Assembly (NCBI GenBank): GCA_020636375.1
Contig: JACJXZ010000011.1
Location: 258,115 to 322,114, forward strand
Source: Lewinellaceae bacterium
GTDB lineage: Bacteria > Bacteroidota > Bacteroidia > Chitinophagales > Saprospiraceae
Reading direction: 5' to 3'
DNA: 64,000 nucleotides
The translations under genes and the position numbers were made by a program. Of this stretch, positions 2,845-63,420 are shown piece by piece. The notes below the pieces were generated by a model. The model saw only the letters and a program-made list of their open reading frames with translations, did no database searches and was not told the DNA's origin. The first letter of the stretch is position 1, and every line of letters begins with the position of its first letter.

Positions 2845-2998
2845 AGGTTGGTGGGTTAAATCCGTTGAATTTTCGGTGCAAATGGAGCGCGGACCCCGCA
2901 AGTCTGCGGGGCAGGTTCTCCAGGTCCGCCGGATCAATCAACGGATTTAACTCACTGCCTTTAAATTTTTGAAGTGCTTGATTTAAATGTGGAGCCAG

Positions 2999-9236: not shown

Positions 9237-12200
9237 CTAGTCTGCGCGCAATTCACTGGGCGGGAAGCCAAACTCCTCTTTGAACATCCTGCTGAAGTAC
9301 TGGGGGCTCGTAAATCCCACCTCATAGGCGATCTCGGAAACGTTGAGCCCGGAGTTCTGCAGCAGGGCCATGGCTTTTTGAAGGCGCACGGACCGGATAA
9401 ACTGTGAAGGGGTTTTGCCGGTAATGGCTTTCAACTTGCGGTACAACTGCGTGTCGCTCATGGCCAGTTTCTGGCTGAGGCCGGGGATGGTCAAACCGGT
9501 ATCGTTTAGCCGCTCCTCAATGGCGAGAATTAATTTTTGGAGGAACTCCTGTTCCCGATCAACTTCGCGGGGGGAATCGGCAGCGGGCGGTGGTATGGAC
9601 TGGCTGCTGGTATAGGTCTGGTATTTGGCCTGTAGCAGAGCTCTGAGTTCAAGCAGCTTTCGCAGGCGGACGAGCAGCTCTTTTTTCTCGAAGGGTTTGG
9701 TAAGATACGCATCTGCGCCAAGTTCCAACCCTTCGATTTTTGATGTCATATCGGCCTTAGCCGTCAGCATAATGATGGGGATATGGCTGGTACGCTCGTC
9801 TTGCTTGAGTTCGCCGCAGACCTGATAGCCATCCTTTTCCGGCATCATAACATCAGTAATGATCAGGTCCGGGATGTATTCAAGGGCCTGATCTATACCC
9901 GCCTGCCCATCGGAGGCAAACCTTAAATTATACTCTTGCTCCAATATAAGCCGGAGGTAATCGGCTACGCCCCCCGAATCTTCTATGATGAGAATTTCAG
10001 GCTGCCCCGTTTTTTCAGAGAGCGCATAGACAGGCTGCGCTTCGGCTTTGGCAACGGAGGCGGTTGTGTCGAACGATAGCGTGCCGGGAGGGGTAGCCTG
10101 GTCGTTGACGATTGGGAGAGACACCGTGAAGATACTGCCCTGGCCCAGTACGCTCTTTACCGTTATGCTGCCGCCGGCCATCTCGATCAGCTCCTTCGTC
10201 AGGGCCAGCCCGATGCCGGTACCTCCCTGCTCGCCGGTATGGTCTTCTACCTGGAAAAAGCGGTCAAAAATATGCGGAATGGCAGCTTCTGGTATGCCTT
10301 TGCCGGTATCCGAAACTTCGATGACCAGCATATCGCGGAACGTATTCACCTTCAATGCTACATTTCCGCCGGCAGGGGTGAATTTTATTGCATTAGATAG
10401 CAGGTTATAAAAGACATACTGCATCTTCTCTTCATCAAAATCCATGATTACCGCCGGAGAGGCGTACCGGGCATCCAGGGTGATGTTTTTATCCAAAGCC
10501 AGGGAGTAAAACGAATCGGCGAGGTATTTAATATAAGCAATAATGTTTCCCTTGGTTTTCCGCAGTTGGAGGTTGCCGGCATCCAGTTTGGAAAGGTCAA
10601 GCATTTGGTTGACGAGCCGCAGTAGGCTATCCGTATTGTGCCGGATCAAATCCCGCTCCTTCTCGAATCCCTGAATCTGTTTGTTCATCCCCTGTATCAC
10701 GGTAAGCGGGGTGCGGAACTCATGCGTGATGTTGTTATACAGCCTGGTTTTGAACTGGTCCAGCTCCCGCAGGCGCAAGGCTTCCCGTTGCTCTATTTGC
10801 CGCCTGAGCCAGAACCGGAAGGCCTGGTAGATGCCTCCCGCCAGCAGTAACCCGAACAGGATTCTCGCCAGCCAGGTTTGGTACCAGTAAGGCAATACCG
10901 TAACTTTTACATGGTATTCATTGAGCGGCAGGTGGTCGCGCATAAGCGCGGCCCGCATTTTCAAAGTGTACTTCCCCGGGGGCAGGTTCTCGTATTTCAC
11001 CAGGTTGTTATGGCGTTTGGGCTCATTCCAGTCTTTTTCGTAATTGTCCAGGTAATAAGCATAATAGTGGTCATCCGGGCTTCGGAGGTCGCCCAGTAAA
11101 AACTCCAGCGTGAAGTAGCGGTCACCGGGCTGGAGTACAATTTCCTTCATCGGGCCTACTCCCCTGTTTTGAGTCGTCAATTGGCCGGTACGGCCATCGT
11201 ATTTAGAAAACTGACTGATAAATACAGGCGCTTTGCCTTTTTCCGGATCCAGATATTGTTTAATGACTTCCTTTGGATAAAAGGCTACATTCTTACTCCT
11301 CCGATCTGTTCCACCAAAATACAGGCGGCCGTCCTGGGCTCGCAGATAGGAGGTGCGGTTGTATTCCACATCCATGACCAGGGGGTTGAGCGGAAAGTCC
11401 ATGAATAAGCCGGTTTGTTGGTCAAAACGAAACAGGCCATGGTTGGTGCTCAGCCAGAGAAAACGGTCCTCTTCCCCGGGCAGTATCCCGTAAATGATGT
11501 AGTAGTCCGGACGGTTGTCGTCGATGGTGAAATGCTGAATATCGGAAAAGCCGGGAGATATTTTGCTGATGCCGGAACTGTGCCCCAGCCACATGTTGCC
11601 TTGCCGGTCTTCGTAGAAGGAAGAGACGATATTGTTTTGAAGGGCCACCCGGCTTTCCGGCCTGATACTTAGGTGGTGGAGCAGCCTTCCCTCCCCGGAA
11701 AAAACAAATACGCCCTGCCCGAAAGTGCCCAGCCAGACGGTCTGGTCTGACGGGCGCAAGTACATGTCATTAAGGTCTACCAATGTTCCGGTTAAGGCGG
11801 GTATCGGAATCGACTTTATGAACGCCAGGCTCTGCAAATCGTAGATATTGATCTGATCGTCTCCCCACCCGGCAGTCCAAATTTGCGTGCCCACCAGCAG
11901 ATGGTTGGTAGTGCCCTCAGACCTGGTATTCCCCGAATAGGGAATGTTTTTGAAACGTTCAAACGCCCCAGTCTCCCAGTCCAGTGCTTTATGGTCAAAG
12001 TATAGCTTGCCTGCTTTATAAACCACAGAATACCAGTTGGGGAAAAACGGAACATCAAGCCATTCTACGGTATCCCTGCGGGGGTCATACCTGGAAATAC
12101 CGGTTTGGGGGCCGTACGTTTTTAAGCCATTCGCCCCGTAAATCCGGCCCTGTTCGTCTTCTGCGAAGCCTCTTATGGTAATCCGGGGGATGATGTGAAA

Positions 12201-13310
12201 GGCATCCGGCTGTTGTATCCATTTCCCGAGCCCCGATTGCATGGCCACAAAAAGCAGGCCGGCCCTGTCGACAAGTATATCCTGCACATACATGAAGTTG
12301 CTGGCCCTGGGGTTTTGGCCGAGGATGTACGCATTGATCCGAAGTTGTTGCCTGGTACGAAGATCTATCTGGATAAAACTTGTGCCTCCCGCAAGATAAA
12401 GGTGATGGCCAACTGAGCGGATCAAGTCAAAGCGGACCGGGCCCAGGTCGTCGTCTTTCTTGTAGGCAAGCTCTTCATTCGCAATCCTGCTGATCACTTG
12501 ATCGTAGGGCATTTGCAGAAAATCATGAACCGACCAATCCGCCAGATCAAGGTAGAACACGACCAAATCCCGGGAGGGAAGCTCCTCCCGATACCCCCAC
12601 AAGCGGTTTTGACGATCTACATCCAGGGTTTTATTGGTCATCAATACCAGCTGGGAAGCGGGCAGCCGGAGTTGGCGCTGCACCTGTCCGGAGGTGTCGA
12701 GCAAGGCCAGGCCTGCCGTATCTTTCACGATGCATCCGCCTTGAAATGGCTTTATAACCGGTTCCCCGTAGGTCAGCAGGGGGGGATGGGCCATCCGTTT
12801 CATGGAATCTGCTCCGGAGGAGCAGTAGAGCTGATAGCGCCGGCGCCCGGTATCCGGATCTTGGGATAATGGATGAATACCCCACAGTCGGCCTGTTGTT
12901 TCCTCCACTTCGATGTAGTCCAGGGCAGCCTGTTTTTGTCCCGGCAGGGCCACCGGGATGGAATCGGTTACCCGGTGCTGCAAAGGATCAAAAACGTGTA
13001 TCTGCCTGCCGGAGTTGAGGTATAATTTTCCCCGGGCGGCTTCAAAAACCTGTTGTTGGTCCGCGAAGGACAAATCCATGCCGATCTCTATCTGCTGGAT
13101 TTTGAGGCCATCAAAGAACTCCAGGCCTTTGCCGTAGTGCCCCAGCCATAGCCTGCCCAGGCTATCCTGGTAAAGATTGTGCACCGCCCCAAAGCTGGCC
13201 CGGGTCTCCTCATTGATCAGCTCAAAGGCGTAGTGGCTTTGCGCCGCTGCCGGGCAGGGCAGCCGATAAATGAAAACCACAATGAGCAGAAACTTGAGGC
13301 AGGCCTTCAA
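9237..13310 (-). CDS. Hybrid two-component system sensor histidine kinase / response regulator with a periplasmic beta-propeller, Y_Y_Y domain and AraC-type HTH output (Bacteroidetes HTCS).
   Basis: 1357 aa. It has a signal peptide, propeller repeats, a TM segment, HisKA 'ITHEFRTPLTVIQG', HATPase 'GTGIGLALTKELIEMAGG', a receiver 'ILIIEDSGG...ITDVMMPEKDGY' and a C-terminal AraC HTH '...SPQYFSRMFKEEFGFPPSE'. Confidence 0.85.
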   Translation of the reverse strand: MKACLKFLLIVVFIYRLPCPAAAQSHYAFELINEETRASFGAVHNLYQDSLGRLWLGHYGKGLEFFDGLKIQQIEIGMDLSFADQQQVFEAARGKLYLNSGRQIHVFDPLQHRVTDSIPVALPGQKQAALDYIEVEETTGRLWGIHPLSQDPDTGRRRYQLYCSSGADSMKRMAHPPLLTYGEPVIKPFQGGCIVKDTAGLALLDTSGQVQRQLRLPASQLVLMTNKTLDVDRQNRLWGYREELPSRDLVVFYLDLADWSVHDFLQMPYDQVISRIANEELAYKKDDDLGPVRFDLIRSVGHHLYLAGGTSFIQIDLRTRQQLRINAYILGQNPRASNFMYVQDILVDRAGLLFVAMQSGLGKWIQQPDAFHIIPRITIRGFAEDEQGRIYGANGLKTYGPQTGISRYDPRRDTVEWLDVPFFPNWYSVVYKAGKLYFDHKALDWETGAFERFKNIPYSGNTRSEGTTNHLLVGTQIWTAGWGDDQINIYDLQSLAFIKSIPIPALTGTLVDLNDMYLRPSDQTVWLGTFGQGVFVFSGEGRLLHHLSIRPESRVALQNNIVSSFYEDRQGNMWLGHSSGISKISPGFSDIQHFTIDDNRPDYYIIYGILPGEEDRFLWLSTNHGLFRFDQQTGLFMDFPLNPLVMDVEYNRTSYLRAQDGRLYFGGTDRRSKNVAFYPKEVIKQYLDPEKGKAPVFISQFSKYDGRTGQLTTQNRGVGPMKEIVLQPGDRYFTLEFLLGDLRSPDDHYYAYYLDNYEKDWNEPKRHNNLVKYENLPPGKYTLKMRAALMRDHLPLNEYHVKVTVLPYWYQTWLARILFGLLLAGGIYQAFRFWLRRQIEQREALRLRELDQFKTRLYNNITHEFRTPLTVIQGMNKQIQGFEKERDLIRHNTDSLLRLVNQMLDLSKLDAGNLQLRKTKGNIIAYIKYLADSFYSLALDKNITLDARYASPAVIMDFDEEKMQYVFYNLLSNAIKFTPAGGNVALKVNTFRDMLVIEVSDTGKGIPEAAIPHIFDRFFQVEDHTGEQGGTGIGLALTKELIEMAGGSITVKSVLGQGSIFTVSLPIVNDQATPPGTLSFDTTASVAKAEAQPVYALSEKTGQPEILIIEDSGGVADYLRLILEQEYNLRFASDGQAGIDQALEYIPDLIITDVMMPEKDGYQVCGELKQDERTSHIPIIMLTAKADMTSKIEGLELGADAYLTKPFEKKELLVRLRKLLELRALLQAKYQTYTSSQSIPPPAADSPREVDREQEFLQKLILAIEERLNDTGLTIPGLSQKLAMSDTQLYRKLKAITGKTPSQFIRSVRLQKAMALLQNSGLNVSEIAYEVGFTSPQYFSRMFKEEFGFPPSELRAD

Positions 13311-36851: not shown

Positions 36852-37667
36852 CTAAGGCGCATCCGGGTCGATGCCCATTTGGCGCAATTTTTCCGCCAGT
36901 TGCCGGGAGCGGCGCTCAGCAGTTTCGGCTCTTTGCTTTTCTTTTTCCGCTCTTTGCTTCTCCTCTTCCGCTCTTTGCTTCTCCTCTTCCGCTCTTTGTT
37001 TCTCCTTCAGCGCCTCCGCCTGAGCTTTTTGCGTTTTTTTCATCTCTTCGTACAGCAGTTCCCGCTGCTTATTCAGCTTCAGGACAGCCTCCCGGTTGAA
37101 CGCCAGCAGTTCCAGGTACGACAGGAAACGCTCGCCGTCCGGCCGGTACAACGTCAGGGCTTCTACTGTCCATTCGAAACGGATGCCCAGCAGCGGGCTG
37201 ATCCACTGGCGGATTTCGGGAACAGCGGCAAGTTCCTCCCCTTCCCGGAGATAACCTTCCAGCTTGTTCTGGTGCGGGTCGTAGATGTAGTATTCCTCCA
37301 CGCCATAGCGCCGGTAAAACTCGAATTTTTTAGCCATTTCGCCGGCGCGGTTGCCGGGAGACAGGATTTCGAATACTACCTGGGGCGGAATATTGTCTTC
37401 CACCCATTGCATATAAGAACTGCGGTAACCCTTGTGCCGGCCAATGACGGCCATCACGTCGGGGGCCAACCGGATGTCCGGCCGGCCTTCTACCGGATAC
37501 CAGAACAGGTCGCCGGCGACAAATACGTCATACCTGTCGGTAAAGCAGGCTTCCAGGCCCAGTTTGATCAGCACGATCCATTCGAATTGGAGGGTGTTTT
37601 CGGCCATGGGTTCTCCGTCGGTGTCAGGATATATCAAATGCAGTTTATCTTTCGGTACGCTTTGCAT
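36852..37667 (-). CDS. Uma2 family (DUF820) endonuclease with a C-terminal KQRAEEE coiled-coil repeat.
   Basis: PD-(D/E)xK-like core 'DVFVAGDLFWYP...EILSPGN..'. The C-terminus '(EKQRAEE)x4' is encoded by a 21 bp tandem repeat at ~36930-37010. The ATG is at 37667. Confidence 0.6.
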   Translation of the reverse strand: MQSVPKDKLHLIYPDTDGEPMAENTLQFEWIVLIKLGLEACFTDRYDVFVAGDLFWYPVEGRPDIRLAPDVMAVIGRHKGYRSSYMQWVEDNIPPQVVFEILSPGNRAGEMAKKFEFYRRYGVEEYYIYDPHQNKLEGYLREGEELAAVPEIRQWISPLLGIRFEWTVEALTLYRPDGERFLSYLELLAFNREAVLKLNKQRELLYEEMKKTQKAQAEALKEKQRAEEEKQRAEEEKQRAEKEKQRAETAERRSRQLAEKLRQMGIDPDAP

Positions 37668-37835
37668 AAGCTTGGTCGTGGTTATAAAATAACGGCTGCT
37701 TCCAAAGATAAGAAATTCCGGGGATAGATGCTTTATAGTTCTGTGGCAATGGGAGGGTAGCCGGGGTTTATGATGTGTAGTTTTGCCTGAATGCGCCCCG
37801 TCCAAAAATATCATAGATTGCAGCTACACTGGGTT

Positions 37836-51720: not shown

Positions 51721-51871
51721 TCGAATCAAAGTACTGCGATTTCCCGGATCGTTGTTTAGTTTTTGGCGATTTTTCAGGCATTCAGCGCTTGTTTTGATTG
51801 ACTAAGTTAACAATATCCTCGATATCTTTCAACAATATATCGAAACAATTTGTGTTTGCTTCTTTGGCTTG

Positions 51872-52860
51872 CCGCGAACTTTAAGCATTGTATCTGCCAA
51901 GACCGCATAGCGGTGCTGTCAGATACAATGCAGTTGAACAGCCTGTCCCGGCGCCATGCCGGGAAAGCCGCATGTATTTGCCGCCCTTATGGGCATTGTA
52001 TCGGCCTATCCAGGGGCTCTCTTCCGGCTCTTCAGCCGCCCGTTTTTCTCTGCCGGGCCCCCTGTAAGCCCCTCCGGCCAGCAACCGCAGCCTAAAATAG
52101 CCGTTTCTTCATTCTTTTTCAAGCCAATTGGCTGCATAGGGGCACAAAAATATTGCCTCAGGCCTGGCCGGCAGGTGCCTGAGCCGCAGCCAATTGGGTG
52201 TCCATCGGTTTGGCCATAAGGCAACAAGGCGGCGCCCGGCCGGTATCCAGATAACTGTTACCATGCGGCCCTTGCCGCACACCGGGCACACTTCCCAATC
52301 AATACCCGTGGCCTGCCGATAGCGCTCCCGCCAGGAAAGAACCGGAAGCTGAGTTGGCGGCGTCATCCCCAAAGCCCGCCGGCAAAGGGCTAAAGCCTGC
52401 CTTCGCAACCTGTTGGACAGGATGCCGTAATACCGGATCTTGCAAAATCTTGCCGGCAGGATGTGCTGCAAAAACCGCCGGATAAACTCCTCATGCTCCA
52501 TGCGCATCACCTTCTGCTTGTTGCCATCGGCATAATCCCGCCAGCGGAAGCAAACAGTATCCTTGTCCACGGACACAATACGGTGGTTGCCGACCTGCCT
52601 GCCAGGCCGCCAAGGCTTGCCTGGCGGGCAGGTGGCTACCCGGTGGGTATAGCGCCCAAGGTAGGCCAGCAATTGCTCCGGCCCGGCAAAGGGCAGCTTG
52701 GCATATACCACCCAATCTTCGGCCATAAGCGCATTGAGCAGTTTGCCAAAGGCCTGCTTGTTACGCAAATGGCCACACAAACCGTCCAGGCGAAGCCGGT
52801 CTGCTTTATAGTACCTGCGCAAAGCGCTGACAAACTTGCCCCTGAACATGGCCGACAAGG
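51872..52860 (-). mobile_element. IS91 family element, copy 1. The transposase is N-terminally truncated, and the element has a ~240 bp hairpin-containing terminal region.
   Basis: 51872-52108 is ~90 percent identical to 57413-57662, including the hairpin 'gcattgtatctg...cagatacaatgc'. ORF 52109-52860 has the IS91 Y2-transposase C-terminal motifs 'YLGRYTHRVA', 'CFRWRDYADGNKQKVM' and 'YYGILSN'. It also has an extra in-frame 42 bp palindromic insertion relative to copy 2. Confidence 0.65.
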
Positions 52861-52959
52861 CCTGTACCGGTACGAGGAACTCCGTAAGCGTCCGGTGAAG
52901 CCCATCTTGCATTAGCAAAAAAGCCTTCTGACCTTTAGGCTGGATCAAACCGAAAAAAG

Positions 52960-53342
52960 ATGAAGCAAAAGACATCGGAAGCGATGCGGCCGATAGTAGA
53001 GGCGTATGCCCACTACCCAGGCAGCAAGAAAGCTTTTTGCGCAGAGGAAAAAGAAGGCCCTTGCGTCGTTATTGCCGAGCAGCCTTCCCGGTTTATTGAC
53101 AAATGTATAGCCGATGAATCGCTGCTGCGAGTCATTATTGCCGATAAATACCTGGACCACCTGCCGCTGTACCGCATAGGGGCCCGTTTTGAGCGCCTGG
53201 GCATGGTTATCCCGCGCTCAACCATGTGTGGGTGGGTAGGGCAGTCAGCCGGCCGCCTAACCATTTTACACCAGAAGCTTATCGAACTGGTTTTAGCAGC
53301 GGCCTACCTGCAGGTAGACGGCCTGCCCCGTACACGCAGTGT
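52960..53342 (+). pseudogene. IS66 family transposase fragment (N-terminal part).
   Basis: 'IIADKYLDHLPLYRIGARFERLGMVIPRSTMCGWVG' matches the IS66 'DHLPLYRQ' region. Confidence 0.6.
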
Positions 53343-55387
53343 CAGGGAATTTTCAGGCATAATTTATTATAGTTTCACTTAAAAACGAAATCTACTTTGA
53401 AATTGCATAACCAAGGGACTCTGGGGTCGATGCCGCTGCGGGCTAAGCGTTGAGGCAAACGGGTATAATGCTGGTGGAGCCCCAATTTTTCAGGCACGCC
53501 ATAAAAAGTAATGACAATGGTGTCGTCCTTGACTTTGAGGCTGCCATCGAAATCCAGGAAGACGCTTTTGGCCAAGTGTTGAGCCGTCCATTGGCTGAAA
53601 GGCTGAGGCAGCAATTGCTTGAGCTCGAAACAGGCGGCTTGGGCTAACAGGGCAGCCGTTTGTTTAGCCAGGCGGACATTGAGGTTCATAGTAGCGGCGC
53701 GGTTCCATCCATGTGGTACCTTTCTTCAAAATTAAAGAAGTCCTCAATAGCCCAGCGTTTGGGGTAGTGTTGGCTGACTTGCAAGAAAGCCTCTTGGCTG
53801 GAAGTGGAAACAAAAGGTTTATAGGAAAACTTGGTCAACCCGGTTCTTTGAACGATAAGCTGAAAGGTTTGCTCATGGCCCTTGAATTGAAAAGGGGCGC
53901 TGGCCAGGGCATAGCCAGGCCAATGTTGTTTGAACTCCATGGCCGGGTAAAGCTGTCGGACGTGCTTGGCGTTAGGGGCAGGCACTATAATGTCGAAGCT
54001 GGGGTGCTCCAGGATAGTGCTTAGCAACTCTACGGTATAATGTTCCGTATCGGCCAAGAGCAAAGCCGAAGGCAGGCCAATTTGCTCTAAAAAAGAAAGC
54101 AGCTGAGTGCTTGCCCTGGTACAGGAACGCCCCGGCGAAGCAATGCCGAAGCCAAAAGGCTGCCCGGACAAGGCATCGTTGCAAAAGAAGGTTTGCATCA
54201 TTTTAGCGGCTTTTTCCCTGGGCATTTTCTTCTTGCGCGGCATGATGCGGCCAGACTGGGTGACGATGCGGTGGGGGTCCAGGGCCAGGATGTTTGCTTC
54301 GTTGTAATGGCCTAATTGTTTCCTGCGCTGGGCCAGGGCCAATTGCAAAGCCTGGGATTGTTCGATGTTTTGGCCATAGGACAGCTCATGGATTTGCTTG
54401 TCGGTTGGCAGGAAAGAAAGCCCGTTGGCGAGGGCAAAGCCTTGGTTGCACAGGGTATTCTTGGCTCTGATGCGGTTGGTGCAAATAGCCGCTTCATGAA
54501 CCATCTGCAAGGCCATGCGGCAAGCCAGGCTATCTCCTGTCCCCAAGTATTGCTGCAGCATGGGCCAGGCGCCTAGCTTTAAATGGAAGGGAAGCAGGAG
54601 CATCAAGCCCAGGTGAGTGCCGGAAACGCGCTGGGCCAACTGCTGGCGCAAACGCCGCTCGTTAGACGAGGGGCTTATTTTTAGCCTGGCTTTGCGGCGC
54701 TTGCTTACCTGTTGCTCCACTACTGTTTGGCCTGGTTGAGGCGGCGGGTGCTTAAACAATTTTTTTTTCCAGCCCGTATTCGGCTAAAATGCGCCGTACG
54801 CTGCTGCGGCTGATTTTATGGCCCTCTTGGCGAAGCTTTTGAGCGATCGCCTCAGTGCTTTGGGCCGGATCTAAAAACTTGTAGCGGATGACAAGGTTCT
54901 TCACTGGCTCGGTGCGCACTGGCTTCGTTTTAGGGCCAGGTTTTTTGTTAACCAAAGCCTGGGAGCCTTCGGCCTTAAAGGCCTTGAGCAATTGGTGGTA
55001 GCGCTGCTCGGAATAGCCGTATCTTTGTGCGGCTTCCTTCGTACTTGCCAGGCGCCTTCGGCGAGCATGAGCAATTTTTGCCCGCTAAGTCGTCTTCGCG
55101 AAGGTTTAAAGTTTTAGCAAAGGGAGCTGTCAGGCAAATGGGAGGCAGGAGCATAAGCAATAGGGTTGGAAAACTAATCGAATATGAACATATATAAAAT
55201 ATACATACTTAAACGCCAAACACCAAAATTGGCTAACTATTTGGCAATGAGGATTTGATGAAAAACAGCAATAATGTGAACGAAACACATATGTTCAAAA
55301 TAAATTATTGTGCCGCTGTGCCGTAAATTTACGGATAATGGATGTAATTTGAAAAGGCTAAAACAAATTATGCCTGAAAATTCCCTG
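53343..55387 (-). mobile_element. IS4/IS5-superfamily insertion sequence with perfect 21 bp terminal IRs. Its transposase is frameshifted across ORFs 54752-54991, 53686-54759 and 53375-53689. The IS splits the IS66 gene.
   Basis: The IR 'CAGGGAATTTTCAGGCATAAT' is inverted at both ends. The tnp has an N-terminal HTH fragment and a C-terminal 'YPKRWAIEDFFNFE' (DDE_Tnp_1 E-motif). Each end abuts a copy of the ~22 bp 'cccgtacacgMagtgtcRggg' palindrome. Confidence 0.6.
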
Positions 55388-55397
55388 TACACGAAGT

Positions 55398-55580
55398 GTC
55401 GGGAAAGGGGCGCAAACCGCCGCCATCTTTTACAGCTTCTTCGCCTGCTGCAAACTCAACGGCGTCGATCCCGTCGAATGGCTGGAGGACGTCATGGCCC
55501 GGTTGCCGGATCACCCGGTCAACCGAATTGAGGAACTTCTGCCGCATCTTTGGAAAAAAGCTGAGGATTGCAAGATGTAG
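55398..55580 (+). pseudogene. IS66 family transposase fragment (C-terminal tail).
   Basis: 'AAIFYSFFACCKLNGVDPVEWLEDVMARLPDHP' matches the conserved IS66 C-terminus. Confidence 0.55.
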
Positions 55581-55946
55581 TTCACCGGACGCTTACAATT
55601 CTCCAAACTATGGAGCCCATCAGGCCCGAAAAAAATAAAGAACGGCGACGACGTTTAATGCGCGGCGCCGAACGGCATATCTATGAAGCAAATTACCGCC
55701 GCGCATTATAGCGATTTCAACACGCCCCGAAAACCGGATTTAAACTCACGATTACAGGAGCTTTTTTCGGTGGCCTTGATCATTGGTTGCCCGGTAAAGT
55801 ATTGCCAGGTTTCTATCATTTTTGACATTTTCCGTCCGATTCTTTTATCAGGTAATTATTGTAAAGCAATTTTGAGGCCGCCTTTTATTTTTTGGCGCGG
55901 CCAACCTGCTTAACTTAATGGTGTTGACGCATTGTTAGCGGCAAAT

Positions 55947-57347
55947 TTAGCTAGTAACATCTAACCTCTTCTCTAAAATTTTCTCCCTTTGCCAATCAAT
56001 AATTGTTTTTTCCAAGGACTCCGTTATTTGTGTGAACGGTCTATCTTTATTTTCCCAATCAGTCGAGGTTACTGGTTTTCCATCTTTAGGCAATGCCTGT
56101 AAATAACTGAAATGTGTTTTTTGCCAAAGACATTCCCTAATAATTATTGGAATCACTTTCACTTTTTCATCATCATGAAGTTTTAATGCTGTCTTCATTT
56201 CAGTCTCATAACAATATTCTGATGCTATGAAATCTGTACTTATTAGCAACAAGATAATGTCTGCTTTTTTTAGAGCATTTTTTATTTGTTCATCCCAATT
56301 TTTTCCAGCTTCTATCAAACCATCGTACCAAATATTGTTTATAAGTTTGGCAATTTGAAGAACTTTTAAGTTTTTAATCAAAGTAATACAAATATCTTCA
56401 TCATTTCGAGAATAAGCAATAAAGAAATTTAAAGGTTCTCTCAATGAATTTACATAGTTTTCAATTTTCTCTTGGAGTGAAAATGCATCCTTGTGATTTC
56501 TTTCCTTCAAAATTAAACTGACTATATCTAAAGCCAGCTTTAAATTGCCTTTAGAGAATTCCCTTTTAGCTTGTTCTAGTTTTTCAATTATGTTACATTC
56601 TTCAATACAAATATCAATTTTCTGTTGAATAAACTCTCTATGAGCTTCTGAAGTTTTGCTTAAATTTTCCTTAGCTTTTTCAAAGTTACTCAAGGAAATT
56701 TCCCAAAGTTTTTCACTATAAGCTCTCATTCCTTGGCTCAAATATTTGTTGAATTGCACAAATTTATCTCTTTCATCAAGATGTTTTTGTAATTGTTTTT
56801 CAATACTAGCATCCTTTTTTATTTCGCTCGCTTTTATAAGGCATTCTATTGCTTCATTTAAAAAACCTCTCTTATAAGAATCCTTTGCAATTTCTTTAAA
56901 TTCAACAAGCTGAGCCTCTATATCGTATTCAAGTGAAACAATTAAATCTCCAGTTTCATCAGTTTCGAATTCATAATTACCTAATCCTTCTTTGACTATT
57001 TCTTCTCCTATCTCAGAACCAAAAGGAATTCTAATCACATATGGACGATTTTCATAGTAAAAACCCCTTCCATCGCAAGGATAGCAGAATAGATTAATCT
57101 TCTTCACCCCCTTACATCGAGAACATTTCTCAAGACTACGCCTTTCCCCAAAAAGAATATTTTTTCGAGTTTTGTATATTGTTCCTTGACCATAACACTC
57201 CGGACAAGAAATAACCCTTTTTCCATTTCCTTGGCATTCTTTGCACTTAATTACCCTTGATAATTCAACTCTTATTTCAAATCCTCGATAGGCATTTTTT
57301 TCAGTCGTATTAATCGTTAGATAATTATTCTTTTTTTGAATACTCAT
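55947..57347 (-). CDS. TIR-domain protein with an N-terminal DnaJ-type (CxxCxGxG)x4 zinc finger and a central helical region. Candidate standalone anti-phage/NADase effector in an AT-rich island.
   Basis: 466 aa. N-terminal 'CKECQGNG..CPECYGQG...CSRCKGVK...CYPCDGRG'. C-terminal TIR features 'NFFIAYSRNDEDI...IWYDGLIEAGKNWDEQI...ADIILLLISTDFIASEYCYETE...KVIPIIIREC'. Gene GC is about 33 percent against about 60 percent for the window. It sits directly between IS66/IS91 remnants. Confidence 0.7.
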   Translation of the reverse strand: MSIQKKNNYLTINTTEKNAYRGFEIRVELSRVIKCKECQGNGKRVISCPECYGQGTIYKTRKNILFGERRSLEKCSRCKGVKKINLFCYPCDGRGFYYENRPYVIRIPFGSEIGEEIVKEGLGNYEFETDETGDLIVSLEYDIEAQLVEFKEIAKDSYKRGFLNEAIECLIKASEIKKDASIEKQLQKHLDERDKFVQFNKYLSQGMRAYSEKLWEISLSNFEKAKENLSKTSEAHREFIQQKIDICIEECNIIEKLEQAKREFSKGNLKLALDIVSLILKERNHKDAFSLQEKIENYVNSLREPLNFFIAYSRNDEDICITLIKNLKVLQIAKLINNIWYDGLIEAGKNWDEQIKNALKKADIILLLISTDFIASEYCYETEMKTALKLHDDEKVKVIPIIIRECLWQKTHFSYLQALPKDGKPVTSTDWENKDRPFTQITESLEKTIIDWQREKILEKRLDVTS

Positions 57348-57412
57348 ATATCTGAATGGCTATCAATTTTAGAATTCATTGTTTTAATAACATACCGAAT
57401 TAGAGATAATAT

Positions 57413-58957
57413 TGCCGCTAACTTTAAGCATTGTATCTGCCGGGACCGCGCAGCGGTGCTGTCAGATACAATGCAGTTGGACGGAACCGCCAAACGCAGC
57501 TGCCTCTATGGGCATTGTATCGGCCTATCCAGGGGCTCTCTTACGGCTCTTTAGCCATCCGTTTTTCTCTGCCGGCCCCCTGTAAGCCCCTCCGGCCGGC
57601 AACCGCAGCCTAAAATAGCCGTTTCTTCCTTCTTTTTCAAGCCAAACATCCGCTTCAAGGCATAAAAATACAGCCTCAGGGCTGAACTGTAGCTGCCTGA
57701 GCCGCAGGCAATGGGGTGGACAACCCTTTAGCCATGAGGCAACAAGGCGGCCCCCGGCCAGCCGGTATCCAGAGAACCGTCAACATGCGGCCCTTGCCGC
57801 ACACCGGGCACACTTCCCAATCAATGCCGGCGGCCTGCCGGTAGCGCTCCCGCCAGGACAGAACCGGAAGCTGGGGCGGCGGTTTTACCCCTAAAGCTTG
57901 CCGGCAAAGTGTCAATGCCCGGCGGCGCAGCCGGTTGGATAAAATACCGTAGTAGCGGATCTTGCAGAACCGGGTGCCGGCAGTACATGCTGTAAAACCG
58001 CCGGATAAACTCCTCATGCTCCAGGCACATCACTTTCTGCTTATTGCCATCGGCGTAATCCCGCCAGCGGAAGCAAACCGTATCCTTGTCCATGGACACA
58101 ATGCGGTGGTTGCTTACCGCCACCCGGTGGGTATAGCGCCCAAGGTAGGTCAGCAATTGCTCCGGCCCGGCAAAGGGCGGCTTGGCATAGGCTACCCATT
58201 CTTGAGCCATCAGCTTGTTTAATAAGCCGTCAAAAGCCTGCTTGCTGCGCAAACGGCCGCACAGCCCTGCCAGGCGAAGCCGGCCAGCTCGGTAGTGCCG
58301 GCGCAAAGCGCTGACAAACTTTCCCTTGAACAGGGCCGACAGAGCCTGCACCGGCACAAAGAACTCCTCGCGGGCTGATACCCATTTGCCGCCCCTCAAG
58401 CCTCCACCAGGAACTATGCAGTGGAGGTGAGGGTGGTAATGCAGGTTCTGACCCCAACTATGCAAGATGGCTGCCATGCCCGGCCGGGCGCCCAGGTAAT
58501 GCCTGTCGGCACACAGCTTCGACAAGGCCGCCCACGCTTCTTGGAATAAGGTTCCATACAACAGCCGTTCATTGTAGCGCACTAAATCGTGAACCTCTGC
58601 CGGAAGCGTAAAAACGATAACCTGTCCCGTACACAAAGTGTCGGGATGAAAATATCCCACTGGCAAAAGCTCTGCTTGCCGCGCTTCCAGCCAGGCTTCC
58701 CGAGCCAGGCTCTGGCATTTAGGACAATGGCGGTTGCGGCAGCTATTATAACTGATGCGAATGTGCCCGCATTCATCGCATGCGTCGATAACTTGTCCCG
58801 TACACGCAGTGTCGGGATGGCCGCCCAATGCCGCCGTACGGCATTGCTCTATAGCTCGCATGGCCTTATGCTGGGCTTTGCTCAGCTTATGCTTTGAACG
58901 GTAAGCTGTGCCGCCGGCTCGAAAAACATCGGCTACCTCATATTTAGGCCGGGCCAT
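57413..58957 (-). mobile_element. IS91 family element, copy 2: a terminal hairpin region plus a Y2/HUH transposase gene. The gene is frameshifted near 57960-58017 and carries two in-frame 30-33 bp palindrome insertions.
   Basis: 'HPHLHCIVPGGGL', 'CRNRHCPKCQ', 'YLGRYTHRVA'. The C-terminus continues in ORF 57676-58017 in another frame. The insertions at 58618-58647 and 58790-58819 split 'GGH|..|DACDECGH' and the HUH motif 'YFH|..|VFTLP'. Confidence 0.7.
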
Positions 58958-58974
58958 GAATGGGTCACCAACGG

Positions 58975-59240
58975 GCCAGCAAATCCGGCAGCCCTTTCAT
59001 CCGGCTGTTTTGCACATGCACATAACGCGCAGTGGTGCTCACGTTGGAATGGCCCAGCAGGGCCTTCACCGTCAGCGTATCCACCCCGTTTTCCAATAAG
59101 TGCGTGGCAAAACTATGGCGCAGCACATGCACCCCTGCCTGCTTGCGAAGGCCAATGCGCTGGCATGCCTGCTTAAATACGGCTTGTACCGTGCGGATGC
59201 TGATATGCCGCCCGGGACATCTTGCCCGGCCGGACGACAG
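58975..59240 (-). pseudogene. Tyrosine recombinase (phage-integrase family) C-terminal fragment immediately upstream of the IS91 transposase gene.
   Basis: Minus-strand frame '...VLRHSFATHLLENGVDTLTVKALLGHSNVSTTARYVHV...' has the canonical R..H..Y catalytic tail. Confidence 0.6.
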
Positions 59241-59994
59241 TTTCGAGCAGGCCCTGCTCCATCACCAGCTTGCCCAGCCGTTTGAGGTTGTAGGACAGCA
59301 CTCCCAAAGCGACATATTTCTTGAACCCGTCCAGGCCTTTATCCGGCACCCGGTTGGCGCCGCTATGCTCCAATTCATTGATATTTGATTCTACAGCGCT
59401 GTGTTTTTTGCGCAATGCCACGAACGTTTTGGCGCTTTCTTCAGCTTCCTGTTGCGGCGTTTTTTTCCCTTTTTTGGGCATCACTACGTGCTCAAAGTCC
59501 TCTTGCAAGGCCTTCTTGGCCAAAAAAAAAAAAAAACCTCTGTCAAAACTAATACTATTCAGCGCATAACCTTCGCTGAAGCGCTCCTTGACACGCTTGG
59601 CCAGCGCAATAGGCTGGGCTTTGTCTCCCTGCCCCACCAATACTTCATGGTCAACAATGAATTGAAATTGGTCCGTTGTTATCAGGGTATTGTGGCCCAG
59701 CTCCACTTTCTTATTATGTTTCCCTTTTTGTATCCACTCCACATGAGGCTCAAAAATAGAAAACACTTTTTCTTCATGAGGGATTATTTCTCCTTTAATA
59801 ATACGGCGCTCTACCAAACCGATATGCTTTTCCAGCATCTCATGGTAATAGGATAAAGCTTTTAATAATGCGCCAAGCTGAATATCTGCCAGCGCTAAGG
59901 GCAACAATTCCTTATAGCTTTGCTCTACGCGCTGGCTCAATTCCCGGCTGCGCTGCAAATATTTTTCAGCCGCTTTTTTCAACCGCTCCTTATA
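59173..59994 (-). pseudogene. C-terminal half of an IS1182/IS5-like DDE transposase gene that is interrupted by the IS4-like element at 59995-61635.
   Basis: '...SAVESNINELEHSGANRVPDKGLDGFKKYVALGVLSYNLKRLGKL'. Reading through the 8 bp TSD joins it in frame to ORF 61623-62408 ('...KGKGYKERLKKAAEKYLQ'). Confidence 0.5.
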
Positions 59995-61635
59995 TCCCTA
60001 GACTTTGGACGTGCGGCGTTGGGGGAAATTTTTTTTCCATCCTTTCGCCGCCCGCCCTGTTAAAAAAAGAGCCGTTCAGGCTCGCTTTTTCTTTGCCTTT
60101 TTACCCTTCCACACGACTTTATGGCGTTCTCTCTTGTCCTGAATGTCTCCTTCTTTGCGCCCTCGGCTTTTTATTTGCAGTTTTGGGAGGAAGGGCTCCT
60201 GCTCAAAACTCAAAATAATAGATTCCATTTGCCGCTGCACCTCGGAGGGAGATACTGGCAAGCCATATTCAACGCGCTTTTTGTAACGCTTGTCGTACTT
60301 CTGCCATTTGTGCACTTTCGCCTGCGCTTCGTCTTTGGCTACCCAAAGTAGCCAGTAGGCCAGGCTTACTATCTCCATCCAATTATCCAAGTGCTCCACG
60401 TCCGGCGTCTGGAAGCTATCCATCAGCAAGTTTTGTTTGCCAAACCGGAGGAAGTGCTCTATATCAAAGCGCTGGCGATAGGCCCAGTATATTTCTTCGA
60501 GGGTTAATTCTCCTACCTGCTGCCCCATACGCCCAGCCACATGCGCCTCTTGAATATAGGCTCCTTTGTCTGGGCATCCATCAAACGCACGCTTACCAGC
60601 CGAAAGGGCTTATCTTTCATATTCATACCTCGTTTGGTACGGATCATCATATTGTCCCAGGCTTGCACTTGTACCAGCACCCGCCGCCCATTAGACAAAG
60701 CCACTCCAAAGGTGCCCTCCTCATCCGGCGGCAATTCCACTGCTCAGCCTCTGAGAGCTTGTACTTTTCTCCATACACTGCATTAGCTCCCCGCTGATCG
60801 GAGTTGTTAGCCCTTCTTTGCTCCTGCTCCCCGATACTGAGGGCTTTCCATACCGCCCGGTTGTTGGTTAAGCGGATGGTGTTCACTAAATGGGGCTGCT
60901 CATACAGCGGGGCGATATATTCGGGCGAACCGTAGTAACGATCTGATGCATTGACGGTCAAGTGTGTGCCAAAAGGCAATTCCTTATTGTCCACTAAATC
61001 CTTGACTTGCCGAGCAGCGAATGTATGCCCTTGGCTGGCTATGCCCTGCCGGCGGATACTCAGCGGAAGGTTCCATGGCGCCTCAGCTACCCCATATAAG
61101 GACCGCCGCGCTGCCAAGCCAACCACTGATATGCTATAGCCAATATCCACTGGTACCGGTTTCCCTTTACCCGGTTATTAGCCACATACACGTGGGAACG
61201 ATCAGGAAGCGTTGGCGAATGATACCGTATCAATGAACTGCCGTCTGTGTTGAGCAAGTAAAACTTTTCAAACGGTTTAGCCATATAACCGCTTTTCAAC
61301 GATAAGAGCTTTTGCTCCAACTCTAAATGGGCACGCTGCTTTTCCTCTTCTGGATAATGGGCGCCTTCATGCAGGCAGTTTATTGCATCCGCTATGCTAC
61401 TGTATTGATAATGATAGCAGCGGCTTAGGCTAACTGCCGTAACTGACCGGGCAGATTGCTGGCTAGCTAGGCCCATCACTAAGTTGGCCAAAGCTTTGCT
61501 TTTTCCAACCTCCAGTTGTAATATTGAGTGGCAGAACGACTCGGTGGCTTTGTTTTTTCGCACAATCCAAAGTTCCGATGTTGTTCTGTCTTTTCAAAAT
61601 CTACCCCTAGCACGTCCAAAGTCTAGTTATATCCC
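59995..61635 (-). mobile_element. IS4-family insertion sequence with 17 bp perfect IRs and an 8 bp target-site duplication (TTATATCC). The transposase is fragmented by frameshifts across ORFs 60076-60540, 60647-61150 and 61087-61563.
   Basis: IR 'CTAGACTTTGGACGTGC' at 59995-60011 is inverted at 61619-61635. The flanks read 'ttatatcc|IS|ttatatcc'. The tnp C-terminus 'RQRFDIEHFLRFGKQNL' is a DDE_Tnp_1 motif. Confidence 0.65.
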
Positions 61636-62408
61636 TTCCCTTTCTTTTGATGGATATTAGCGGTGCGCCGGTAAACCCGCTTAATAATTTTATGCCAATG
61701 CTTGTGCTTGCGCCAGCCGGGCAGGGTAGTGTGCTTTAATATTAATCCTATCGTGTCCAGGCATTTGCGGTTGCAATCCCATAATAAATTAATATCAGTT
61801 GGAAAATGTATAGTGCTTTCCACCGCGTAAGTGTCGGCCTTCAAATTTAATTCAATATTTTCTTCGCTTTCGTTTTTTTTTAATTGGTGGCCCGCTTTAA
61901 CCACCACTTCGCTGATCTCCTTTAAAGTTTTCTCGTCAAGCAATGCGATATTATCTTTCAGCGTTTGCAGCTCGTAATATTTGCCTTCGCCAAATACTTG
62001 CCGGGTATGTACCCCCAGGATGCCGCGCACCACTTGGTGGTGGTTGGCCAGGTCGTAAACGGTGTCATAGTCCGCATCCAGGTTTAGCCGCATTGTGCCC
62101 AGCACCAATATCTCCCACAAGCTCATGCCTAAACGGCCCGTTGCTTTTTTACCCCCCAAAACCTTCTTTTCAAGAATCTCGAAAACCACCTCATTTAGAT
62201 AGGGAGTGACAAAAATGTATTGCAAGCCTGCCAGCAGTTGGGGAAGCTCATGTCGGCTCTTGCCGTCTATTTTTACATCCGGGATCAGTTGGGCGTCCAG
62301 TTCATTTTGCTGTTCGAAGCGCTTTCTCATCAGGGGAAAATTTGAATGTTTGGCGAATAACAAATTAGTTAAATCTTTCATGTGATTGAAAAACAATGCT
62401 TTACGCAT
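61636..62408 (-). pseudogene. N-terminal half of the same IS1182/IS5-like transposase gene.
   Basis: ORF 61623-62408 is 261 aa. Its stop codon is created by the inserted IS terminus (…GYN* via 'ctag'). Confidence 0.45.
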
Positions 62409-62718: not shown

Positions 62719-63420
62719 GTGCGACACTTAGGAGTATGGCCAGGTAGCTAATGTGTGTGCCCGGCATGGGCATCCGGTCCCTGTAAAGATAGGGAATAAA
62801 ACTAGAGGGTGAAAATCCCTTACAGGCAAGTTGCCGAAGCCTGTTAGCAAGCCGCAAGGGCGCTCGGAGTGATCCGGGGTCTGAAGGAAGCGGGACTGCA
62901 AAAGCTGGTACCGACGAACAGGAATCGCATAAGAGGCTGGATTAGGAGCGTAAGGCAGCATCCCGTCAGGCGTGACGGGATCAAAGCGCGTAGGCAGCCA
63001 TCCTAATTGAGTAGATGCGGCGGCGATCAGCGGAAAGCGGATGTCCTTACCCGGGGAGATCTCCACGAGGATTCATTCCTGGAATGGAGAAGTCAGCCGA
63101 AGCCATAGTAGCGGAGCCAAACCGTGTTCTAATGACTAGCCATCCCGACACTTTGTGTACGGGACAAGTTGTTGCTGGCAGCGGAGCGTGAGAGGGTAGC
63201 CGTGAAGGGCTGAACGTCGAACAGCGGACGATCCGCGAAACATGGAACTTGTCTATCATGGGTGACCGATTCCCTACGGCAAACCATCCGTTTCGATGGA
63301 AAAGATGCAAGGTGCAACTGGTGAAAAGAGCGGTTGTACTGTTTGACGAACCGCCGTATACGTGACCCGTACGTACGGTGGTGTGAGGGCTCTGGAACAG
63401 TGACGGACACCTTTGCCCAT
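62719..63420 (+). ncRNA. Candidate ORF-less group II intron (class C-like) or related structured RNA, about 700 nt.
   Basis: It begins GUGCG at 62719. Near the 3' end (63351-63384) there is a domain-V-like hairpin 'CCGCCGUAUACG-UGACC-CGU[AC]GUACGGUGG', with the lower stem CCGUAU/GUACGG and the 2 nt AC bulge identical to the canonical DV. A triad-position 'CGC' and a GAAAGCGG-type motif lie upstream. No IEP ORF is present. The region also contains a copy of the 30 bp palindrome (63141-63170). Confidence 0.3.

Follow-up and report, generated by a model that had tools for sequence, protein, structure and literature searches.

The genome of a Lewinellaceae bacterium carries a gene for a protein in which the client-binding part of DnaJ is joined, through a helical linker, to a TIR domain with the active-site residues of NAD+-cleaving enzymes. 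The gene was found in a stretch of 64,000 nucleotides (referred to here as the window), exactly where the initial annotation had placed it, and judging from its sequence it looks like an integron cassette stranded among insertion sequences (ISs). We propose that the product is a cytoplasmic, cassette-borne immune protein whose single chain contains both the sensor and the TIR effector, and we assign to this composite explanation a probability of a little under one half (roughly 45%).

The open reading frame (ORF) has a GC content of 0.31; the value is 0.552 over the window as a whole and 0.572 over bases 1–48000, which are mostly housekeeping DNA. These values are close to the 33% in a genome of about 60% GC given by the initial annotation. 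Its view that the gene was acquired horizontally is supported both by this difference and by the GC content at third codon positions (GC3; 0.23 in the ORF), which equals that of a homologue on a contig of 32% GC. NCBI names the identical protein, P0001, 'TIR domain-containing protein [Lewinellaceae bacterium]'. A contig of 1.54 kb with 100% identity was present in three independent Logan assemblies; it spans window positions 55898/55902 to 57440/57448 and extends 29–37 nt into the GC-rich end of the adjacent IS91-like element. The junction between AT-rich and GC-rich DNA is therefore real, and no assembly chimera of the metagenome-assembled genome (MAG). The shortness of the Logan contigs indicates that both flanks of the gene are repeated DNA. 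Among 5.8 billion clustered proteins, the same architecture was found only in P0002 (76% identity), which is encoded at a locus designated L001.

Module composition and relatives of the protein

The C-terminal module proved to be a TIR domain, as the initial annotation had claimed. The Pfam model TIR_2 (PF13676) matched aa 308–410 with 56 bits (cut-off 28, E = 6.9e-15), and the model TIR (PF01582) scored 23.5 bits (cut-off 21.3). AlphaFold2, with an input alignment of TIR-clade relatives, gave pLDDT values above 90 over aa 305–460. When the model was compared with the PDB using Foldseek, 46 of the 50 listed hits were TIR domains, ranks 1–18 included; they comprised AbTir with 3AD (7uxu, TMt 0.80), MAL, MyD88 and the TIR-APAZ subunit of MapSPARTA (8spo_E, rmsd 2.7). 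The nearest solved structure by sequence was Cat1, a CRISPR-associated TIR NADase, which the single sequence matched with E = 1.4e-5 and the clade profile with E = 1.7e-9. In the alignment to Cat1, residues D342, S376 and E383 correspond to D33, S68 and E74, which line the NADase pocket and are each required for activity, mutation abolishing it (PMC12162218). These three residues, including the catalytic Glu position to which the initial annotation had drawn attention, are invariant or nearly so among 37 members of the TIR clade (alignment A3). The domain thus has the fold and the active-site residues of NAD+-cleaving TIR enzymes, and NADase activity is predicted. Conservation of the active-site residues also argues against a TIR domain that serves purely as a scaffold.

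Among defence profiles, the best match was PADLOC ThsB1 (PDLC00420; E = 9.2e-38, aa 307–455). The protein could on this basis be a ThsB-like signal generator whose TIR nucleotide signal activates an effector encoded elsewhere, the gene being part of a Thoeris-type system that was split or orphaned when the surrounding IS activity parted the partners. However, only the TIR part of the ThsB1 model is aligned (positions 3–148 of 319), and the model matches every member of the TIR clade, whichever domain is fused. No genes for ThsA (in either its SIR2/SLOG or its Macro/TM form), SIR2, Macro, SAVED or STAND proteins were found in the window, in L001 or in L002, the locus of a TIR-clade relative described below, and PADLOC detected no ThsA or other system component across the window. 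As the initial annotation had stated, there is no ThsA, SAVED or Argonaute gene next to the TIR gene. At the undisrupted L001 locus, moreover, the gene is alone in its cassette, beside genes for two unrelated proteins, one a pentapeptide protein and the other a transmembrane (TM)/P-loop protein. Since neither a ThsA-like gene nor another partner gene lies nearby, a protein with a ThsB-type TIR is present here outside a Thoeris system, and the role of a signal generator for a distant effector is distinctly unlikely.

The N-terminal module corresponds to C-terminal domain I (CTD-I) of DnaJ with its inserted zinc finger. The initial annotation had recognised a zinc finger with four CxxCxGxG motifs at DnaJ spacing. 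All eight cysteines do have that spacing (pairs C35/C38, C48/C51, C75/C78 and C88/C91) and the motifs at C35, C48 and C88 are perfect, but the fourth is CxxCxGxK (C75-C78-G80-K82), and the finger is only part of a larger unit that takes in the whole of CTD-I. The zinc-finger model PF00684 scored 27.9 bits, under its cut-off of 32.7, whereas the NCBIfam DnaJ equivalog TIGR02349 matched the entire module (aa 6–141 against model positions 117–256, E = 3.2e-22).

An exhaustive HMMER search of 1.84 billion representative proteins with aa 1–304 returned one full-length relative, P0002, and 2009 DnaJ-type proteins that match only aa ~5–141, at 28–38% identity. Nothing besides P0002 was retrieved with the same 304 residues in a word-indexed search of the 5.8 billion clustered proteins. 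In an alignment with 28 DnaJ segments (A4) none of the eight cysteines varies, several of the motif glycines are likewise invariant, and conservation reaches 90% or more in the columns of P108/G110 and G133-D134-L135. AlphaFold modelled aa 1–150, aligned with DnaJ segments, with a pLDDT of 93.2, and the best PDB matches of this model in Foldseek were DnaJA2, Streptococcus pneumoniae DnaJ and Ydj1, all of them to CTD-I and the zinc finger; phmmer matched the module to PDB entries 6jzb and 1nlt. The separate run was used for the module because in the full-length run the multiple sequence alignment did not cover the N-terminus, which had a pLDDT below 50. Alignments A3 and A4 were likewise kept separate, a mixed full-length DnaJ/TIR MAFFT alignment (A1) and its trimmed version (A2) having set the C-terminal half of DnaJ on TIR columns.

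No J domain (PF00226) was matched anywhere in the protein, which starts at about position 117 of the DnaJ model. Similarity to DnaJ in the TIGR02349 and HMMER comparisons stops at about aa 141, and the G/F region, CTD-II and the dimerisation domain are absent. The N-terminus is the client-binding part of a class A DnaJ without the parts that couple to DnaK or dimerise, which makes canonical co-chaperone action with DnaK impossible. Class A J-domain proteins such as Escherichia coli DnaJ, Ydj1 and DnaJA2 share with it CTD-I and the inserted two-zinc finger; they differ in having the J domain, with its HPD motif, and the other three regions. DnaJ C-terminal modules that lack a J domain were also found in other, non-TIR fusions.

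Between the two modules AlphaFold predicted helices over aa 143–301 (pLDDT 75–88). The initial annotation was thus right about a helical linker and overestimated its length, which is about 160 rather than about 200 residues. Foldseek also gave weak matches to the TPR proteins OGT, SPY and P58IPK, in alignments of 272–417 columns that exceed the length of the linker, and BLASTP aligned the linker itself with the TPR region of the TIR-clade member P0003 (E = 2e-5).

A codon comparison with P0002 gave a ratio of non-synonymous to synonymous substitution rates (dN/dS) of 0.14 overall, a sign of purifying selection and thus of a gene that functions in its lineage. Conservation is highest in the TIR domain (0.075), followed by the linker (0.077); the DnaJ-like module (0.31) changes fastest, at about four times the rate of the TIR domain. 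The putative sensor would thus be the fast-evolving part, as expected for a gene involved in conflict.

The TIR clade is promiscuous, with TPR, WD40, LRR-Roc-COR, CHAT, FGE/C-lectin, Macro and NACHT among its fusion partners, and its closest members are 50–58% identical to the window protein in the TIR domain. P0003, the closest (58%), consists of TIR, TPR and the C2 domain of IF2, the fMet-tRNA-binding barrel; its C-terminus matched 1D1N in a phmmer search of the PDB (E = 5e-19). It gives the clade a second example of TIR joined to a housekeeping ligand-binding domain. In P0004 (50% identity; locus L018, gene 262–1518) TIR and TPR were confirmed, and the rest resembles P0003 by eye. L018 (1574 bp, 29% GC) is barely longer than this gene and contains GTTATACGC ~30 nt before the ATG and GCGTATAAAC ~10 nt past the stop codon; allowing for a 1-nt indel, the two sequences may represent cassette ends. 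P0009 (L002, gene 717–1928; also L003 and L004) has the reverse domain order, TIR being followed by a full DnaJ C-terminal region (half of the zinc finger, CTD-I and CTD-II). All relatives of its DnaJ part are ordinary DnaJ proteins without a fusion, and P0009 therefore arose as a fusion independently. The window gene is present as well in SRR12358676, one of the source runs of P0009. Other close relatives combine TIR with TPR and FGE (P0007), with Fib_succ (P0008, P0010 and P0013) or with GH18 (P0006), and QueC also occurs as a partner among them. The initial annotation had regarded the domain combination of the window protein as undescribed, and full-text literature searches (TIR with DnaJ, ThsB with DnaJ, NADase with DnaJ and phage defence) likewise found no description of a DnaJ-CTD/TIR fusion.

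Probable cassette boundaries and flanking insertion sequences

DNA homology between the window and L001, which has 32% GC throughout, amounts to 80% and is restricted to window positions 55930–57374. Alignment of the ends showed that both loci carry GTTAGCGGCAAT just before the gene and GCCGCTAAC-AAT right past the stop codon. In the window, the 5′ boundary is marked by GTTAGCGGCAA, an attC R′-type core with the crossover point G|TT, and the sequence TTGCCGCTAAC, 2 nt past the stop codon, corresponds to the inverse core R″ of the cassette's own attC. Positions 57422–57412 and 55944–55934 are exact reverse complements (11/11 nt). In the leader that separates the 5′ boundary from the ATG, the proximal 27 nt can be aligned with L001 by BLAST and the remainder aligns loosely; the leader may hold a promoter.

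L001 consists of three tiling units (137–879, 1054–2585 and 2639–4110), and the first 10–11 nt (GTT...) of each are the exact reverse complement of an ...AAC box that follows the last ORF of the unit. The terminal motif occurs nine times in L001 against 1.5 expected, a number reached in none of 200 shuffles. The structured elements between the units are of two kinds, 59 nt and ~180 nt long, and are laid out as AAC box, 3-nt spacer, stem arm, variable loop, other stem arm, 5-nt spacer and GTT box; 2583–2641 and 4103–4290 are the positions of two of the attC-like elements. The ~180-nt (type-2) element was found in six copies in five contigs, two in L001 and one each in L010–L013. Five of the six lie directly after the same-strand stop codon of a sizeable ORF, the copy in L013 following an ORF of only 41 codons; the interior of the element is conserved and its outer boxes are variable.

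Integron cassettes typically comprise a single ORF and a palindromic site of 60 to >150 bp in which only the GTT crossover is conserved (10.64898/2026.03.17.712381). When a circular cassette recombines at G|TT, the footprint left behind is complementarity between the start of the cassette and its own R″. On these sequence features, the window gene looks like a promoter-proximal single-ORF integron cassette from a low-GC donor that has become stranded, its crossover termini alone surviving. A strict generic attC pattern (RYYYAAC...GTTRRRY, paired boxes) was too strict, recovering nothing even in L001. A relaxed scan recovered 4/4 of the L001 elements and, in the window, also the palindromes of two IS91-like elements, against a noisy background. 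When genome contigs were scanned with the 21-mer attC end, the only matches were in L001's own contig and, probably by chance, in one housekeeping ORF.

The initial annotation had noted IS91 ends on both sides of the gene and an IS66 remnant, and all of these were found (Table 1), the IS91-like copies being counted from 51869/51880 (copy A) and 57412/57423 (copy B). Copy B matched the NCBIfam IS91 family transposase (E = 2.4e-106) and Pfam Y2_Tnp and Zn_Tnp_IS91, and the flank of copy A is the canonical target GTTC within TTGCCGCGAAC (51869–51879). The two copies are 79% identical over 1021 alignment columns, with a range of 79–92% across comparisons. Read on the minus strand, both finish with the palindrome and then CTTAAA, after which comes GTTC in copy A and GTTA in copy B, so that the true IS ends are 51880 and 57423. 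The cassette begins with the very tetranucleotide that flanks copy B, and copy B was therefore inserted at the cassette's GTT core.

From the position of the gene between the two copies, the initial annotation had suggested that it was mobilised by IS91-type rolling-circle transposition. Elements of this family have the order terIS, (orf), tnpA, oriIS with its palindrome, and a target tetranucleotide, which is CTTG, GTTC or a variant. The DNA taken along in one-ended transposition is that beyond terIS, and adjacent DNA is mobilised in 1–14% of events (PMC13181058). The direct orientation of the two copies and the location of the gene on the terIS side of copy A are consistent with capture and delivery in this way. 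However, the gene abuts the oriIS side of copy B, which is the non-mobilised side, so that transposition of copy B cannot take it along. Copy A breaks off at 52883 and differs from copy B to the extent given above, and 2.7 kb of other IS DNA and a further 337 bp (55597–55933) intervene between it and the gene. Homology with L001, which is free of IS91, stops precisely at the attC crossover points, and the target GTTA/GTTC is the start of an attC R′ core, which explains the presence of an IS91-like element there. One-ended transposition is accordingly a very improbable source of the gene here, and the suggestion of the initial annotation is replaced by that of a probable cassette at whose end an IS91-like element was inserted. 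The sequence TTGCCGCTAAC at 55934–55944 was also considered as an IS91-like terminus or terIS of copy A; this was ruled out because 55597–55946 is unlike copy B and because L001 carries the same 11-mers without IS91.

The oriIS-side flanks of copies A and B share 11 nt with one mismatch (TTGCCGC(G/T)AAC, at 51869–51879 and 57412–57422), only 4 nt of which are explained by IS91 biology. A small array may once have existed here, with related attC sites whose R′ cores received both copies. The oriIS palindromes (57420–57478 and 51877–51935, minus strand) are themselves attC-like, with GTCCAAC/GTTCAAC, 2 nt, an 11-bp stem, 6 nt and GTT, and their AAC-to-GTT distance of 59 nt is that of the short L001 elements. 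This likeness could be a convergence of two systems based on single-stranded DNA hairpins, or the reason why the IS is located at cassette cores.

Truncation of the attC, IS debris on both sides and a GC3 that has not been ameliorated, and hence points to recent arrival, are all compatible with a functionless passenger in this genome, that is, an unexpressed cassette awaiting decay. Such a fate seems rather improbable, as the ORF is intact across 466 codons, its dN/dS against the homologue denotes selection on the lineage, and its sequence is identical in three sequencing runs. In addition, the upstream same-strand IS91-like tnpA and the AT-rich leader could drive transcription, for which the outward promoters of ISCR1 are a precedent (PMC6218425).

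Towards lower coordinates the gene is followed by the 337 bp mentioned above, which are unassigned, then by the IS66-family derivative and copy A; towards higher coordinates lie copy B, a tyrosine-recombinase fragment, scored about alike by XerC, XerA and IntI models, and a split ISNCY element. Transposase fragments between the two ISNCY parts (60076–61150) represent nested IS insertions. An imperfect palindrome of ~32 nt, AACYTGTCCCGTACACRNAGTGTCGGGATGGC, is present in three copies (58615–58648, 58786–58819 and 63139–63170). Two of them lie inside the transposase ORF of copy B, giving a repeated PDT(A/L)CTGQVI peptide, and the third is inverted, 4.3 kb away; the element resembles small repetitive extragenic palindromic (REP) or miniature inverted-repeat transposable element (MITE)-like sequences. 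Apart from the TIR gene, the only defence-candidate matches in the window were a putative endonuclease of the Uma2 family (36852–37814; PADLOC PDC-S03, E = 6e-12) and a 1357-aa ORF (9237–13310, minus strand) with a weak match to PDC-M43B. In L001, the cassette upstream of the P0002 gene encodes (1565–2500) a protein of 311 aa in which TM helices at the N-terminus are combined with a P-loop GTPase/ATPase-like domain. PADLOC matched this protein weakly to PDC-S01, PtuA and GajA, and it is not present in the window.

Table 1. Positions of the gene, its modules and probable cassette ends, and the surrounding mobile elements in the window
Feature	Coordinates	Strand	Details
ORF	55947..57347	minus	466 aa, stop codon included; modules: DnaJ CTD-I/zinc finger, TPR-like linker, TIR
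DnaJ CTD-I with inserted zinc finger, aa 5–141	56925..57335	minus	TIGR02349, HMMER, AlphaFold, Foldseek, phmmer
All-helical TPR-like linker, aa 142–304	56436..56924	minus	seven helices; AlphaFold, Foldseek, BLASTP
TIR domain, aa 305–460	55968..56435	minus	HMMs, AlphaFold, Foldseek, dN/dS 0.075; 89% aa identity to P0002
D342 codon	56322–56324	minus	coordinates checked by translation
S376 codon	56220–56222	minus	coordinates checked by translation
E383 codon, catalytic Glu position	56199..56201	minus	coordinates checked by translation
Leader, AT-rich	57348..57411	minus	64 nt, between cassette boundary and ATG
5′ cassette boundary GTTAGCGGCAA	57412..57422	minus	attC R′-type core, crossover G|TT; L001 homology starts here
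Inverse core R″ TTGCCGCTAAC of the cassette's own attC	55934..55944	minus	2 nt past stop codon; L001 homology ends ~55930
IS91-like copy B	57423..58957	minus	oriIS palindrome 57428–57474; frameshifted tnpA 57676–58957; target GTTA = first 4 nt of cassette
IS91-like copy A	51880..52883	minus	oriIS end and C-terminal two thirds of tnpA, truncated
IS66-family derivative	52884..55596	plus	inverted repeats 52884–52911 and 55569–55596
DDE-transposase IS nested in IS66-family derivative	53343–55387	minus	
Tyrosine recombinase C-terminal fragment	~58958–59200	minus	stop overlaps IS91-like tnpA start; cut upstream by ISNCY element
ISNCY-family transposase, split	59173–62408		C-terminal part 59173–59982, N-terminal part 61623–62408

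Candidate functions of the fusion

In the proposed mechanism, the DnaJ-derived module would bind hydrophobic segments exposed on abundant non-native proteins that arise in the course of infection, for example capsid or coat subunits; alternatively, it might bind phage proteins whose normal partner is host DnaJ. Several copies would be gathered by multivalent binding, possibly with help from the TPR-like region, and the TIR domains could then build head-to-tail assemblies that make a composite active site. NAD+ would be hydrolysed, or a signal nucleotide produced, and the infected cell would halt growth before phage release. The gene would have arrived as a cassette, and now lies in an IS-dense stretch with an IS91-like element exactly at its 5′ GTT. 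This reading is supported by the standalone, single-cassette nature of the gene and by the TIR clade, which repeats the logic of the fusion in P0009, with DnaJ in the reverse order, and in P0003, with IF2 C2. A role for DnaJ in phage sensing has a recent precedent in bNACHT25, which requires host DnaJ to sense phage coat protein and apparently monitors a host process without direct binding of the phage protein (PMC12169576). Integron cassettes have also been reported to encode compact phage-defence systems (bioRxiv 10.1101/2024.07.02.601719; 10.64898/2026.03.17.712381).

Several points weigh against this interpretation. The surroundings are no recognisable defence island, the upstream genes being of housekeeping type (farther upstream these are peptidases with type IX secretion system (T9SS) sorting domains, an amylase, a flotillin and a sigma/anti-sigma pair) and the rest IS elements. 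NADase activity, oligomerisation and client binding are predictions for the window protein and for its close relatives alike, and the catalytic Glu is directly preceded by one inserted residue (SEYCYETE, compared with SDWCWD-E in Cat1 and classical TIRs). With just two full-length members known, no statistic of comparative context can be given. P0006 and P0010 occur in housekeeping contexts and have apparently extracytoplasmic domains, so the TIR clade may have signalling roles beyond phage defence. As to the cassette, only R″ and the 3-nt spacer remain of the attC of the window copy, the remainder having been lost or diverged, and folding revealed no attC-like hairpin downstream of the gene (z −1.2). 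An integron integrase was not detected, on contigs that are short, and the L001 array is therefore formally a cluster of attC-like sites.

Some of these points would also fit a role outside immunity, either as a sensor of proteotoxic stress or protein quality or as an addiction/toxin module that stabilises a cassette array, with the TIR domain acting as NADase toxin or scaffold. DnaJ CTD-I binds non-native proteins generally, as is established in chaperone biology, and the genomic contexts of the relatives and of the locus itself are as just described. On the other hand, a sensor-like module that outpaces its effector in evolution is typical of conflict genes, the conserved active-site residues speak against a purely scaffolding TIR, the distribution of the fusion is extremely patchy and cassette-borne, and no antitoxin-like partner is present. 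We regard a non-immune role as unlikely, and continue to prefer that of an immune sensor-effector.

In plants, NLR receptors with integrated decoys contain a copy of a pathogen-targeted host domain, fused to an immune effector or signalling domain, and TIR domains are used there too. The TIR clade might similarly fuse ligand-binding domains from essential host proteins as 'integrated baits', such that hijack or overload of chaperones or translation initiation by phage trips NAD+ depletion. The DnaJ CTD-I/zinc finger of the window protein, the full DnaJ_C of P0009 and the initiator-tRNA-binding IF2 C2 domain of P0003 may be examples. This extension is speculative and more probably wrong than right by some distance; the window protein has neither NB-ARC nor LRR, and a decoy role for its DnaJ part is hypothetical.

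Relation to known systems

Compared with the NAD+-cleaving TIR effectors Cat1, AbTir, SPARTA TIR-APAZ and ThsB, the window protein has the same TIR fold and equivalents of Cat1 D33/S68/E74, and activation driven by oligomerisation would be expected. Its activity is a prediction, and it differs in the insertion before the catalytic Glu and in its sensor, a DnaJ client-binding module attached via a TPR-like linker instead of CARF, Argonaute/APAZ or a ThsA partner. The protein also lacks the central NACHT/NB-ARC NTPase of STAND/NLR-type sensors (Avs, bNACHT): scans with Pfam, NCBIfam and PADLOC revealed no NACHT, NB-ARC or other P-loop domain in it. bNACHT25 is a conceptual precedent, likewise tying client recognition of the DnaJ type to an abortive immune effector. 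It is, however, a STAND NTPase with a nuclease effector that uses the cell's own full DnaJ in trans and needs J-domain function (PMC12169576), whereas here a J-less fragment of DnaJ is fused in cis to TIR, and there is no NTPase.

With defence integron cassettes the gene shares a single ORF with a short leader, an attC inverse core right past the stop codon and a 5′ start complementary to its own R″, and the homologue P0002 is, like them, in an array of same-strand cassettes. In the window copy, by contrast, most of the attC is gone, no array surrounds the gene and no integrase was seen, and the host is a Bacteroidota (Lewinellaceae) MAG, whereas the cassettes studied came from Proteobacteria. 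The cassette-type boundaries extend the notion of integrons as libraries of defence genes to a low-GC MAG lineage, a Bacteroidota genome holding a stranded copy.

The great rarity of the fusion (two clusters and one independent reverse fusion) means that its ecological weight is small. A TIR effector with a variable sensor is a known design in bacterial immunity, and the use of the client-binding half of DnaJ as the sensor is undescribed in the literature searched. The sister architecture with IF2 C2 hints at a wider principle of host-domain baits, which, if true, would be a bacterial counterpart of the integrated decoys of plant NLRs, spread as plug-in integron cassettes. If the fusion works as proposed, it would offer a compact single-gene system of ~1.5 kb in which to test chaperone-type recognition of non-native or viral proteins as an immune trigger.

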